IMG/VR virus record: IMGVR_UViG_2529292908_000012
DNA: 34,970 nucleotides
Reading direction: 5' to 3' (one strand)
Source of the DNA: a virus
Lineage: Duplodnaviria > Heunggongvirae > Uroviricota > Caudoviricetes
Shown here: one piece after another, positions 28,157 to 33,951 of the stretch
Position numbering within the stretch: the first letter of the stretch is position 1
Layout: each line of letters starts with the position of its first letter
Notes under the pieces: generated by a model
Database searches by the model: none
The model's input: only the letters and a program-made list of their open reading frames with translations
Told to the model about the DNA's origin: nothing
Program-made: the position numbers and the translations under genes

Positions 28157-28612
28157 AAATTCACTCTCCTTACGGGGTTTGTAGTTGAGGAGTTCTCCAC
28201 GGGTGAGGTGGAGATCGTGCGCCGGACACGGGTGAGTTCCTGCACTCTCAGTTTACTGAACAGACATTACCCTGAAAGCCAGGGTACTACACGAAAGCGC
28301 GAGGCGAAGACTCTTTCCCATAGAAGGATTGTCGTTAGATTTCTTCGACCGTGCGCTTCCGGTTGTGAATAACAACATTGCTGTGTGTAACCCTTGGCGG
28401 ATATCGGTTTGCCGATTGCTGATGTCCGCCCTTTTTAAAGTGAATTTTGTGATGCGGTGAATGCGGCTATGCGCACGCGGAACAGTTAAACCGACAGGAT
28501 GTCACGGAAAGTCATCGTCCCCTGACCCGGCGTTAGTTGTTAACTGGTTAACGTCACCTGGAGGCACCAGGCACCGCATCAACAAAGTTCATTTGTGAAA
28601 ATGGAGATAATT

Positions 28613-28834
28613 ATGATTGCTCATCACTTCGGAACTGATGAAATACCACGTCAGTGCGTGACGCCTGGCGATTATGTTCTTCATGAAGGTCGGACATATA
28701 TCGCTTCAGCAAACAATATTGAAAAGAGAAAACTCTATATTCGTAACTTCACAACAAAAACATGCATTACCGACTGCATGATTAAAGTTTTCATCGGGCG
28801 CGATGGCTTACCCGTAAAAGCAGCGTCGTTGTGA
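28613..28834 (+). CDS. Hypothetical early-left accessory protein
   Basis: [24 protein letters not shown].. with SD ggag 7 nt upstream. Confidence 0.45.
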
Positions 28835-28917: not shown

Positions 28918-29304
28918 ATGAAAGAACTTGCGCAAAATGAAATATTTTCCAAAACCAGTCCTGATGCAATAAATGAACTCAAAGAAATTGCAGAACGCAT
29001 CAGTAAAATATGCAAAGAATACAAAATCGACTTTGTATTTTCTTTTTCAGTGCTTACAGAAGTTGGAAATAACGAATATAAGGACAGTCGTTTTGTTTTA
29101 TGTGGGTTAAATGGCAAAACACCAAGCCCATATATTCATGCTGCACGTGAAGTTGTCAGAAGCAACATTGGAGTACAACAAATCCATACACTTGCACAGG
29201 CTCTTGAGTTTGCAAGAGAAAATTCTGAGTGCGACTGCCCTGAATGCCAGCACGAAAAGGGAAAAACAACTCACAAAACAGCAAACCAGGCAACCTTCCA
29301 CTGA
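28918..29304 (+). CDS. Hypothetical protein with C-terminal Cys/His cluster (CDCPECQHEKG)
   Basis: 128-aa ORF in the AT-rich early-left region. Confidence 0.5.
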   Translation: MKELAQNEIFSKTSPDAINELKEIAERISKICKEYKIDFVFSFSVLTEVGNNEYKDSRFVLCGLNGKTPSPYIHAAREVVRSNIGVQQIHTLAQALEFARENSECDCPECQHEKGKTTHKTANQATFH

Positions 29305-29411: not shown

Positions 29412-31484
29412 ATGAGCGCTGATAAACAGACTTTTGCACTACACTGCGAAGCAAAAAACGATAAAGTCAGAAAACGCCTTGGCATCAAAGGCGGTTTTTT
29501 CTGGACCGAGGCCAGAAAACTTTCTGTCGCAGTTTCCCGCTGCATTGCAGCCATGGACGATGCAGGCTACGACGAGGATGATTTCAAAAAACCCGTTCGC
29601 GTAAATTTCCCCGTCGTGAATGACCTTCCACCGGAAGGCGTGTTTGATACTGAATTCTGCAACCGCTATGAAAAAGGCGGTAACGATGGCATCACCATGA
29701 TGGCTATCCCCTTCGATGACAACATCAACGGTGAAGATGCCACAACTGCTGGCGATGACAACGATAACCTGGACGGAACTATTCCGGATGATGTGGAGAA
29801 AAGCGAATCCCCGGACAGCGACGATGACTGTTCTGAGTGTGAAATTCCCGTCGCCACTCTGAGCCTTACTCATCGCTTCCTTCACCTCTTCTTATTCAGC
29901 AAAGATGAAGATGGAAAATACCGGCATCATGCCACACCAGAACAACGCAATAACGTGATCCGTATGGAGATGGACACAGAGGACAGTTACCTTCAGAGCC
30001 TGCTTACTGCTGTGCGCGCCGCGCATCATGAACTGGATAAACTGACGAACTATCACCTTAGTCGCCTGGCTGAATCTGTAGGGAAAGCATTCCCCCACTC
30101 TGCAAATCATCGCATCAGCCCGGCTGAATTCGACAAGTTCATTTCCACCTGGATGAAAACTGACTACCTTGATCAGGGCCTGCTGACAAAAGAATGGCAG
30201 AACGGAAATTATGTTTCAGGCATTACCCGTACGCCTTCCGGTGCTAACGCTGGCGGCGGAAATATTACCGATCGTGGTGAAGGATTCAAACATGATAAGA
30301 CATCACTCGCACGAGATGTAGCCACCGGCGTTCTGGCCCGTTCAATGGATGTGGATATTTATAACCTGCACCCAGCACACGCAAAACGCGTTGAAGAAAT
30401 CGTGTCAGAGAATAAGCCGCCCTTTTCTGTTTTTCGCGACAAATTTATCGCCATGCCCGGTGGGCTGGATTATTCCCGCGCCATTGTGGTGGCTTCCGTG
30501 AAAGAAGCACCAATCGGCATTGAGGCCATCCCGGCACGCGTGACTGAATATCTCAACAAAGTGTTGACCGAAACCGATCACGCTAACCCGGATCCGGAAA
30601 TCGTGGAAATTGCCTGCGGTCGCTCATCAGCACCGATGCCGCAGCGCGGAACAGCAGAAGGAAAACATGGCGATGAAGAAAAGCAACAAACATCGGACAC
30701 AATGGCTAATGAACAGGCAGCGCCTGAATCAGTGGAAGAAATTCCAGTTAAACATAATGAGGACACGCAATCACTGGAAAATGTCTCATCTGTAGAAACG
30801 AAATACCAGGAACTGAGGGAGGAACTCAATAAAGCCAGGGAAAACATCCCCCCAAAAAATCCAGTCGATGCCGACAAATTACTGGCTGCCTCGCGTGGAG
30901 AATTCGTTGAAGGCATCAGTAACCCTGCTGATCCGAAGTGGGTGAAGGGGATCCAGACTCGCGACACTGAGGACCAGAATCAGCCCAAAGTGGAACAAAT
31001 TGCCCCAGAAGCGGGACAAAACAGCCCGGATACGCAACAAAACGGGCCAGAAGAGCAACAGCCAGGGCCAGTAATGCAACAGGAAGTGGAAAAGGTTTGC
31101 ACCACATGCAGTCAGAACGGTGGCGGCCATTGCCCTGACTGTGGTCCAGTAATGGGAGATGAAACTTACGCTGAAACTTTTGGAGAAAATGACGCCGCTG
31201 ATGGAGAAGACTCAGCACAAACTGAGGAGAAGATCATTCAGGAAAACTCTGTTGATGCCGCTCAGGAGGGCGAAACCGTTGTTCAGAACGAGCCAGGCAG
31301 TGATACGTCCGGCGATGACGCCAATTCTGAGCCAGTAACTCTCGACTGGAAAAGACAGCTCGTGATTGCCGCCGTCTATGGTTTGTGCGCCAACCCCGCA
31401 TGTATAGCCACAGCGCCAGCAATCCCTGATATCGCCATCATGATTGCCAACAGGCTTGAAAATTTCGAAGGTGATAAATCATGA
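29412..31484 (+). CDS. 690-aa highly acidic protein with C4 zinc ribbon, translationally coupled to gam
   Basis: Long ORF; acidic tracts ([30 protein letters not shown]); [16 protein letters not shown] at aa 563-578 (nt 31098..31145); hydrophobic C-terminal segment; stop overlaps the gam ATG. Confidence 0.8.
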
Positions 31485-31777
31485 ATGCCTGGCTTATCCC
31501 CGATCGCATTGAAGAGCAGTCATGGGCACGACACTACCAGCAAATTGCCCGTGAAGAAACTGAAGCTGAGCTGGCAGACGACCTGGAAAAAGGTCTGCCC
31601 CAACACCTGTTTGAATCGCTATGCATCGATAATCTGCAACGTCACGGGGCCAGCAAAAAAGCTATTTCCCGTGCATTTGATGACGATGTCGATTTTCAGG
31701 AACGCATGGCAGAACACATCCGCTACATGGCTGAAACCATCGCCCGTCACCAAATTAATATTGATTCAGAGGTATAA
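31481..31777 (+). CDS. gam: Gam (RecBCD inhibitor), short form
   Basis: [59 protein letters not shown] is near-identical to the lambda Gam C-terminal 98 aa as recalled. Confidence 0.9.
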
Positions 31778-31782
31778 AACGG

Positions 31783-32568
31783 ATGAGTACAGCACTCGCA
31801 ACGCTGGCAGGGAAGCTGGCTGAACGTGTCGGCATGGATTCTGTCGACCCACAGGAACTAATCACCACTCTTCGCCAGACGGCATTTAAAGGTGATGCCA
31901 GCGATGCGCAATTTATCGCATTGTTGATCGTCGCCAACCAGTACGGCCTTAATCCCTGGACGAAAGAAATTTACGCCTTCCCTGACAAGCAGAACGGCAT
32001 CGTTCCGGTGGTTGGCGTTGATGGCTGGTCCCGCATTATCAATGAAAACCAGCAGTTTGATGGCATGGACTTTGAGCAGGACAATGAGTCCTGTACATGC
32101 CGGATTTACCGCAAAGATCGCAATCACCCGATCTGCGTTACCGAGTGGATGGATGAATGTCGCCGCGCACCATTCAAAACCCGCGAAGGCAGAGAAATCA
32201 CCGGACCGTGGCAGTCGCATCCCAAACGGATGTTACGGCACAAAGCCATGATTCAGTGTGCTCGCCTGGCCTTCGGATTTGCTGGCATCTATGACAAGGA
32301 TGAAGCCGAGCGTATTGTCGAAAATACTGCATATACTACAGAACGTCAGCCGGAACGCGACATCACCCCGGTTAACGAAGAAACCATGTCGGAAATTAAC
32401 GCCCTTCTTACTTCCATGGAAAAAACGTGGGATGACGACCTGTTGCCGCTCTGTTCCCAGATTTTTCGCCGCAACATTTACACATCTTCAGAACTAACAC
32501 AGGCTGAAGCTGTGAAGGTTCTTGGATTCCTGAAACAGAAAGTCACAGAGCAGAAGGTAGCAGCATGA
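31783..32568 (+). CDS. bet: Bet (Red-beta single-strand annealing protein)
   Basis: 261-aa ORF near-identical to lambda Bet as recalled. Confidence 0.95.
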
Positions 32569-33242
32569 CACCGGACATTATCCTGCAACGTACAGGGATC
32601 GACGTGAGAGCTGTCGAACAGGGGGATGATGCGTGGCACAAATTACGGCTCGGCGTCATCACCGCTTCAGAAGTTCACAACGTGATAGCAAAACCCCGCT
32701 CAGGAAAGAAATGGCCTGACATGAAAATGTCCTACTTCCACACCCTGCTGGCTGAGGTTTGCACCGGTGTGGCTCCGGAAGTTAACGCTAAAGCGCTGGC
32801 CTGGGGAAAACAGTACGAGAACGACGCCAGAGCCCTCTTTGAGTTCACTTCCGGCGTGAATGTTACTGAATCCCCGATCATCTATCGCGACGAAAGTATG
32901 CGCACCGCTTGCTCTCCCGATGGTTTATGCAGTGACGGCAACGGCCTTGAACTGAAATGCCCGTTTACCTCCCGGGATTTCATGAAATTCCGGCTCGGTG
33001 GTTTCGAGGCAATAAAATCGGCTTACATGGCCCAGGTGCAGTACAGCATGTGGGTGACGCGAAAAGATGCCTGGTACTTTGCCAACTATGACCCGCGCAT
33101 GAAGCGTGAAGGCCTGCATTATGTCGTGATTGAGCGGAATGAAAAGTACATGGCGAGTTTTGACGAGATGGTGCCGGAGTTCATCGAAAAAATGGACGAG
33201 GCACTGGCTGAAATTGGTTTTGTATTTGGGGAGCAATGGTGA
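32565..33242 (+). CDS. exo: Lambda-type 5'-3' exonuclease (Red-alpha)
   Basis: [54 protein letters not shown].. is near-identical to lambda Exo as recalled. Confidence 0.95.
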
Positions 33243-33293: not shown

Positions 33294-33545
33294 GTGTTCG
33301 TTCTAATCCAGCGCGGGCAGTCTTTCGTCGATGCCAACAACTATCCGGTTGAAGTCTGCAAAATCACTCTGACGCAGGTAATCTTCCGCAGGCTGGATGG
33401 GAGAACCAGAGCCGCTTCAATTAGCGCATTTAATGCAGAATTTGAGCGAATCGATCACAACGAACTACACATGATTAAAGCAGAAATTGAGAAGGAAAAG
33501 CATATTGCCAGCCTTCGAAAAATGCGCCGCATATCAATCAACTGA
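33294..33545 (+). CDS. Hypothetical protein between exo and xis (GTG start)
   Basis: 83-aa ORF in the position of lambda ea-type genes. Confidence 0.45.
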   Translation: MFVLIQRGQSFVDANNYPVEVCKITLTQVIFRRLDGRTRAASISAFNAEFERIDHNELHMIKAEIEKEKHIASLRKMRRISIN

Positions 33546-33579: not shown

Positions 33580-33951
33580 ATGGATTCACACAGTATCACC
33601 CTCAAAGAGGCCTGTAAGTTTCTCAAGATATCAAGGCCAACAGCTGTTAACTGGATACGAACGGGCCGACTACAGGCAACCCGAAAAAATTCTTCCGGTA
33701 AAAGATCACCTTATCTCACAACCCGGCAAGCCTGCATTGCAGCACTTCATTCACCGCTGCATACTGTCCAGGTGAGCGCGGGTGATGGCATAACAGAGGA
33801 AAGAAAATGTCACTCTTCCGCAGAGGTGAAATATGGTACGCCTCGTACTCGCTCCCGGGCGGGAAGCGAATTAAGGAGTCTCTTGGCACAAAGGACAAGC
33901 GGCAAGCTCAGGAGTTGCACGACAAGCGAAAAGCAGAACTCTGGCGAGTAG
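33580..33951 (+). CDS. xis: Excisionase-like HTH protein (AlpA/Xis-type); 3' end uncertain, frame overlaps int by about 145 nt
   Basis: [31 protein letters not shown] resembles AlpA/Xis-type HTH; the frame has no stop until 33951. Confidence 0.5.

Follow-up and report, generated by a model that had tools for sequence, protein, structure and literature searches.

What kind of protein is encoded directly upstream of gam in the early-left operon of this prophage, and what might it do? The window—34,970 nucleotides of a virus of the Caudoviricetes, held in IMG/VR as record IMGVR_UViG_2529292908_000012—carries at this place an open reading frame (ORF) of 690 residues, which occupies positions 29412–31484 of the plus strand. 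These coordinates and the ATG start, first assigned in a preliminary description made from the sequence alone, are borne out. The databases RefSeq (WP_001271587.1) and GenBank name the product "RecE family exodeoxyribonuclease" or "exodeoxyribonuclease VIII", and PHROG likewise calls it an exodeoxyribonuclease. As set out below, the ORF belongs, as a typical representative, to a common, catalogued and functionally unexplained prophage family—the nuclease-less RecE-N/YdfE family.

The preliminary description recognised no family for this protein; the profile searches identify it as the N-terminal region of RecE (exonuclease VIII). The only match in a Pfam search is PF06630 (Exonuc_VIII), which covers residues 55–197 with an E value of 1.8e-12 and 48 bits at a cutoff of 25. 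PHROG 607 aligns with residues 1–687 over profile positions 1–617 of 883 (E=2e-260). The RecE equivalog NF007259 of NCBIfam is matched over its positions 1–598 of 877 only and gives 740 bits, below the curated cutoff of 1269 bits. As judged by BLASTP, residues 51–635 correspond to residues 43–578 of K-12 RecE (E=5e-178, 51% identity), and the core at residues 248–600 is approximately 85–90% identical between the two proteins. A nuclease-bearing RecE of 1049 residues shares 87% identity over residues 1–611, being near-identical up to approximately residue 520 and divergent near residue 600. In addition, the protein is matched by PHROG 26058 (E=2e-29) and aligns with the protein P0182 over residues 239–687, the C-terminal tail included (BLASTP, E=3e-38). 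The preliminary description named, as a finding against its reading, a confident match to a protein of known but unrelated role; the match obtained is indeed confident, but it leads to the part of RecE whose own role is unexplained.

The nuclease domain of RecE is absent. PF12684, DEDD and RecT profiles give no match in the ORF protein or elsewhere in the window, and tblastn with two RecE nuclease domains returns chance matches only across the window. The recT partner gene is absent from the window as well, the ORF being followed by gam, bet, and exo. The protein is the free-standing, noncatalytic N-region of Rac RecE of approximately 600 residues and, because the PD-(D/E)XK domain is lacking, cannot act as an exodeoxyribonuclease, whatever the databases call it. 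The position of the ORF has to be reworded, too: it was described as the kil/cIII position, but kil is a separate gene further upstream (28595–28834), and the ORF fills the recE slot of Rac, in which the genes are ordered kilR-ydaE-racC-recE-recT.

K-12 Rac RecE (b1350, 866 residues) resembles the ORF protein in the PF06630 region, the CxxC-x7-CxxC motif, the acidic linkers, and the slot downstream of kil. It differs from it by a PD-(D/E)XK nuclease (PF12684/DUF3799; 3H4R) and the partner RecT, in place of which the window features a 45-residue hairpin and Gam-Bet-Exo. RecE forms a toroidal tetramer. Reviews describe the role of its N-terminal domain as "unclear" and the domain as dispensable for nuclease activity and for recombination with RecT; they also report that full-length RecE, not the nuclease domain alone, strongly enhances linear–linear recombination. 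A fragment termed "miniRecE E121-T222" (NAR 2026) was considered as an active piece of the N-region and was rejected, residues 121 and 222 of full-length RecE being P and L; the fragment most likely comes from the nuclease domain, its numbering fitting a start near residue 586, as in a common truncated RecE construct. The nuclease-less nature of such proteins has been remarked upon once: a 2025 survey of lambdoid Rec modules published in Genome Research (PMC12315714) mentions nuclease-less "RecE-2" proteins in one sentence and without analysis, and these may correspond to the ORF protein.

The domain layout was derived from an AlphaFold2 model built with an 83-sequence alignment (mean predicted local distance difference test score, pLDDT, of 76.6). 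Selection along the chain was measured as the ratio of nonsynonymous to synonymous divergence (dN/dS) in codon alignments of 29 unique nuclease-less genes, by comparison of the two sublineages A1 (the window type) and A2 at a dS of approximately 1.2. All segments named in the following lie on the plus strand. An N-terminal α/β domain (residues 1–103; 29412–29720; pLDDT 83–98, dN/dS 0.11) is followed by a first acidic disordered linker (residues 104–139; 29721–29828) with a net charge of −13 and a pLDDT below 50. The helical core domain (residues 140–415; 29829–30656) has a pLDDT above 90 and a dN/dS of 0.26. Residues 1–100 and 140–400 form the core that is conserved family-wide, with hot spots at W262, G277/A280/G282, T286-D287-R288, D313-x-D315, and P349-G350-L352-R356. 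A second acidic disordered linker (residues 416–455; 30657–30776) leads to a conserved helical segment (residues 456–513; 30777–30950; dN/dS 0.14), modeled as helices at residues 458–494, which several PHROG exonuclease families also have ahead of their nuclease domains. After a third disordered linker (residues 514–559; 30951–31088) comes the zinc-ribbon-like motif CxxC-x7-CxxC (residues 563–578; 31098–31145), shared with residues 517–532 of K-12 RecE, and then a fourth linker (residues 579–642; 31146–31337), which is acidic (net charge −18) and hypervariable and in the E. coli relatives ends at a ...SDETGE junction. The last segment is a C-terminal mini-domain (residues 643–690; 31338–31481)—hereafter the tail—which is predicted to form a helical hairpin, takes the place of the nuclease domain, and has a dN/dS of 0.09. 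In the model, the hairpin is a helix-turn-helix of residues 646–660 and 668–687 with a pLDDT of 76–91, and disorder is found at residues 104–137, 422–455, 514–559, and 579–639.

The folded domains were searched against three structure libraries—the check on an AlphaFold model proposed at the outset—and gave no solved or viral structural relative. Phmmer of the ORF protein against the PDB sequences returns nothing, and the family profile finds among them only 3H4R, the RecE nuclease domain, through full-length members of the alignment.

Two compositional features of the preliminary description hold in part. The motif of the proposed C4 zinc ribbon is present at residues 563–577, but it is a feature of a subgroup, found in seven of the 83 family representatives and modeled at a pLDDT of 57–67; its segment has an occupancy of 15% in the family alignment and a dN/dS of 0.15, and the first Cys is lost in one sublineage. 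The protein is strongly acidic (18.3% D+E and 9.7% K+R, net charge −59, isoelectric point 4.56), but the long D/E tracts ascribed to it are not found, the longest pure run of D/E being four residues. The disordered linkers, 186 residues together, carry a net charge of −46, and the folded parts, 485 residues, one of −12. Hence, the acidity is that of D/E-rich disordered linkers, and the folded domains are near neutral.

The gene is maintained under purifying selection and is not a remnant. The dN/dS of the whole gene is 0.24, the tail is its most constrained segment, the acidic linkers range from 0.43 to 0.66, and the two sublineages when compared give no value above 1. Synonymous sites of the tail have diverged as much as those of the other segments; hence, selection here constrains the protein and not the ribosome-binding region of gam. 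More than 100 intact protein clusters have a length of 680–700 residues. The exact gene type is present in 98 of 5426 complete E. coli genomes, the DNA of the N-terminal domain (29412–29720) in 1584 of them, and the wider family in approximately 29%. Decayed copies occur as well: three loci carry frameshifted, deleted, or insertion sequence (IS)-truncated genes (L039, L047, and L038), and fragments are found in Shigella.

The tail lies behind a fixed junction. All architectures share the linker ...MEGAEHPH.EN.GS..H.D.SDETGE and diverge directly after it, the slot behind ...SDETGE holding a PD-(D/E)XK nuclease, a DEDD exonuclease, or the 45-residue helical tail; the ORF protein ends 48 residues past the linker. 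Within the nuclease-less genes, the tail is almost invariant in sequence, and the linker preceding it is hypervariable. The window tail aligns with those of A2, of a further lineage A3, and of ten distant representatives over the motif ...QQL.IAA..G[LM]CANP...[LI]P..A..., the consensus of the distant tails being [YW].QQL.IAAL.G[LM]CANP...[DE][LI]P.MA... with an acidic, amphipathic second helix. Phmmer finds no counterpart of the tail in the nuclease-fused relatives. The tail was also considered as a portable module, which was rejected, as a profile search found only fragments of the same gene. Compared by Smith–Waterman alignment with an internal helix-turn-helix at residues 348–388, the tail (residues 640–690) gives a score that is reached by 61 of 2000 and 42 of 2000 shuffles; this weak likeness (...AIPARV...) may stem from an internal duplication of ancient date or be fortuitous.

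Further variation is seen at the C terminus of the family. The A2 proteins (L059–L064) extend the tail by ...VTDDEHMPDF or ...SDERLPDF, an acidic tip ending in P-x-F that resembles the SSB C-terminal tip DDDIPF and is absent from the window protein. Two more types of C-terminal region, of 350–450 residues and with no Pfam or nuclease match, follow the family core in other representatives: one ends in ...YLEGRLRRLEEVK... (P0224, P0258, P0142, P0190, P0127, P0177, and P0200) and the other in ...HGE (P0242, P0215, P0178, P0172, P0162, P0137, and P0165). These may be additional cassettes.

The neighborhood of the gene was surveyed in 80 related IMG/VR loci, following the suggestion to look at the gene upstream of gam in other prophages, and the tail form proved to be followed by Gam wherever downstream sequence exists. 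In this form (646–692 residues), Bet and Exo come after Gam except where a contig end or an IS element intervenes (L065, L071, and L076); in L071 (6372–8704, minus strand), this is an IS66-like insertion of three ORFs directly after gam. Sublineage A1 has 83–100% identity to the window protein and is preceded by kil and a PHROG 2016 gene; sublineage A2 has 56–60% identity and is preceded by kil and racC. Lineage A3, the third nuclease-less one (65% identity), again features Gam-Bet-Exo downstream in an otherwise Rac-like prophage, with KilR, Lar, DUF1187, Exc, and an Int at yebY/copD. The PD-(D/E)XK form (891–1098 residues) is followed by RecT wherever downstream sequence exists; in L072, RecE and RecT are joined in a read-through fusion ORF of 1098 residues, and three representatives join the family region with a RecT domain. 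The DEDD form (827–847 residues), which carries an Rv2179c-like 3′–5′ exonuclease, has no annealase. Such fusions (PF16473) are found at L005:5001–7442 (CFT073) and L006:3589–6060 (O157 FORC_044) and in L051, L054–L056, and L058, with xis/int directly after them. Compared with the ORF protein, the RecE-N::DEDD proteins of CFT073 and O157 prophages (813–847 residues) have the same N-region and linker junction but end in the 3′–5′ exonuclease, and no annealase adjoins them.

In the window, the stop codon of the ORF (TGA, 31482–31484) overlaps the start codon of gam (ATG, 31481–31483) in an ATGA arrangement (31481–31484), preceded by a Shine–Dalgarno-like AAGGTGA (31468–31474), the whole element spanning 31468–31484 on the plus strand. 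The overlap noted in the preliminary description is real; as a sign of a specific link with gam it is weak evidence, because the slot shows an overlap whatever gene comes next. The broader statement that this is a conserved and selected gene of the early-left operon, co-transcribed and tightly packed with Gam-Bet-Exo, is supported.

Homologous tails also end many distant nuclease-less representatives of 22–30% identity. These proteins make up PHROG 26058 ("unknown function") and carry the precomputed Pfam labels PF27430 (YdfE_N) and PF27432 (YdfE_C), the window-like proteins being labeled PF06630 only. The seven such loci examined are ordered as kil/kilR, a small ORF, the family gene, an overlapping ORF of 62–80 residues, xis, and int, and the small ORFs after the family gene fall into three or more families that are unrelated to one another and in no case Gam-like. 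Gam, Bet, Exo, and RecT are absent from all seven of these distant tail-bearing loci. The YdfE (Qin, K-12 b1577)/PHROG 26058 proteins belong to the family of the ORF, as the PHROG matches cross over, and they share with it the slot between kil/dicB and xis-int, the lack of a nuclease, and the homologous mini-domain; they differ from it in sequence, in lacking the zinc ribbon, and in residing in prophages without a recombinase. K-12 ydfE (L095:6079–6999), which gives the new Pfam families their name, is itself an IS2-truncated pseudogene and retains the first approximately 257 family residues of the DEDD-fusion type (PHROG 2082 positions 1–257 of 823). A literature search found no functional work on ydfE.

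Because homologous tails occur in prophages that lack any phage recombinase, the tail is hardly a Red-specific adaptor, and the ORF protein is an autonomous unit rather than a Red-specific subunit. The nuclease-less, tail-bearing form is a basal architecture of the family. The tail has no conserved neighbor as a partner, and the stop/start overlap is a property of the slot and not of gam.

What such a unit might do can be proposed tentatively. The reading given most weight—without being probable in its own right—is that of a noncatalytic scaffold for linear DNA ends or recombination intermediates, proposed because the enhancement of linear–linear recombination is the only phenotype experimentally tied to the RecE N-region. 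Its partners would be the nuclease and annealase at hand in each case: fused to it in RecE, encoded next door as Exo and Bet here, or host-encoded. The C-terminal hairpin would most plausibly supply self-association, as the alternative cassettes are oligomeric nucleases—the tetrameric RecE and the DEDD exonucleases, which form dimers—and the acidic linkers would serve as flexible spacers. Several points weigh against this proposal. The recombination effect was measured on covalently fused RecE; many family members reside in prophages without a recombinase, so that the role may not be recombination at all; and others are fused to a 3′–5′ DEDD exonuclease, a type said usually to inhibit recombination. 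Furthermore, adjacency trivially accounts for the linkage of tail and gam in E. coli, that the tail self-associates is purely an inference, and we infer the function of the free-standing protein from sequence. A bolder version of the scaffold proposal seems rather improbable: the RecE-N/YdfE scaffold would be an autonomous DNA-end factor of which RecE is one fusion, the ORF protein would lend lambda Red in trans the efficient linear–linear recombination observed to date with full-length RecE/RecT only, and the core motifs (Gly-rich loop, T-D-R, and D-x-D) would form a new catalytic site or binding site for DNA ends or a host factor in a fold for which no relative has been solved.

The strongest competitor, though doubtful, is a role in anti-defence or host takeover: the protein would block a host nuclease or defence system or serve as a decoy for it, for instance by means of its acidic segments, or it would be a targeting platform by which exchangeable effectors are delivered to a host target. 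The gene has accessory genes (kil and the gene in the racC slot) as neighbors in the early-left operon, its product is acidic with an isoelectric point of 4.56 and has hypervariable linkers, the family is maintained in prophages that have no recombinase, and Rac-type RecE/RecT phages have no recognised anti-RecBCD gene. The acidity, however, resides in disordered linkers that evolve nearly neutrally, a structured DNA-mimic surface is not evident, and the comparison between sublineages yields no dN/dS above 1. The structure libraries offer no relative, Pfam gave PF06630 only and no known anti-restriction family, and since the ORF co-occurs with Gam, the protein is not simply a Gam substitute. 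The specific proposal of a DNA-mimic anti-restriction protein finds no positive evidence, the charge being in the fast-evolving linkers and not on a folded surface. Ocr, ArdA, and lambda Gam are likewise acidic products of early phage genes, but they share no sequence or fold similarity with the ORF protein, and their acidic residues lie on a rigid folded surface. PADLOC gives no match, which adds little, as it models defence systems and not anti-defence proteins.

Next comes the possibility that the ORF protein is one half of a split RecE, a Red-specific subunit acting in trans whose hairpin docks the RecE N-region noncovalently onto lambda Exo, Bet, or Gam. This was first favored from the synteny in E. 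coli, where the tail form of three diverged lineages precedes Gam-Bet-Exo if the downstream region is intact; the tail replaces the nuclease domain exactly in position and is under strong constraint, and the stop codon overlaps the gam start. It was dropped as the main explanation after the seven recombinase-less loci were examined: homologous tails occur there without Gam, Bet, or Exo, the small ORFs downstream come from at least three unrelated families, the overlap forms with any next gene, and adjacency explains the linkage in E. coli. The split arrangement is therefore unlikely.

An anchor in the inner membrane, with the hydrophobic tail inserted and the acidic body localised there, is considerably less likely still. 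The hydrophobic C-terminal segment noticed at the outset is real, with a best Kyte–Doolittle mean over 19 residues of 1.75 at residue 650 (residues 650–668), which is above the classical threshold of 1.6. In the model, however, the helix is interrupted at the invariant N661-P662, leaving helices of only approximately 15 and 20 residues, whereas a tail anchor calls for a continuous hydrophobic one of at least approximately 18–20; the invariant GLCANP core suggests specific packing, and the second helix of the distant homologues is acidic and amphipathic. That the ORF is a nonfunctional remnant of a recE-nuclease/recT segment replaced by gam-bet-exo, as mosaic joints at the linker and approximately 21 nucleotides inside gam, the decayed copies, and the ydfE pseudogene of K-12 might suggest, is barely credible and already largely refuted by the selection data—a low dN/dS in the whole gene and lowest in the tail, at saturated dS—together with the number of intact clusters, the three diverged intact lineages, and a tail conserved down to 22–30% identity.

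The neighbors of the ORF combine Rac and lambda features, all on the plus strand. Upstream, the window kil encodes a protein of 79 residues (PHROG 294) that is of the Rac KilR type and not lambda Kil. It is followed by an ORF of 128 residues (28918–29304; PHROG 2016, function without assignment), which occupies the racC slot of Rac-like prophages and features a C-terminal CDCPEC motif. Because of this slot, and because a block of the retron toxin RcaT has been reported for RacC, it is a candidate anti-defence gene. Downstream, gam (31481–31777) encodes 98 residues matching PF06064 (E=5e-65) with 84% identity to lambda Gam, and only in the GamS-equivalent form: the gene lacks the first 40 codons of lambda GamL, with tail-coding sequence in their place, and DNA homology to lambda and 933W starts approximately 21 nucleotides inside gam. 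The bet gene (31783–32568; 261 residues) encodes a protein 94% identical to lambda Bet, and the exo gene (32565–33242; 225 residues), the sole exonuclease gene found in the operon, one 98% identical to lambda Exo. Between exo and int (33294–33545 and approximately 33580–33645), the RefSeq annotation is limited to an ORF of DUF4222 and a partial pseudogene of the helix-turn-helix type and contains no canonical xis. Elsewhere in the window, genes for RelE/ParE-family, Doc-family, and HokD toxins cluster in the nin region at approximately 18578–20325, a position carried over from L088 with an offset of +17411. The prophage is integrated in ynfG of E. coli FORC_069, and a near-identical phage, PhiR5_2, whose copy of the gene is 99% identical to the ORF, has been deposited as a complete genome of 61.5 kb with K-12 MG1655 as its listed host.

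With the lack of a nuclease remarked upon once before, the new elements are the recognition of the database misnaming, a fixed junction for the exchange of cassettes, a conserved mini-domain at the C terminus with a wide distribution, the selection profile, and evidence for the autonomy of the RecE N-region. The misnaming as an exodeoxyribonuclease affects, with the exact gene type, the 98 complete E. coli genomes counted above. The fixed junction, at which a 5′–3′ exonuclease, a 3′–5′ exonuclease, and the 45-residue mini-domain are exchanged, is a clean case of cassette swapping inside a phage gene. For RecE itself, the N-terminal region is what makes RecET direct cloning work, and no explanation of its role has followed from the dissection of the enzyme. 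A selected, free-standing family shows this region to be an independent functional unit, and its members—beside a near-lambda Red module here, without a recombinase elsewhere—are natural constructs with which the role of the RecE N-region may be approached.

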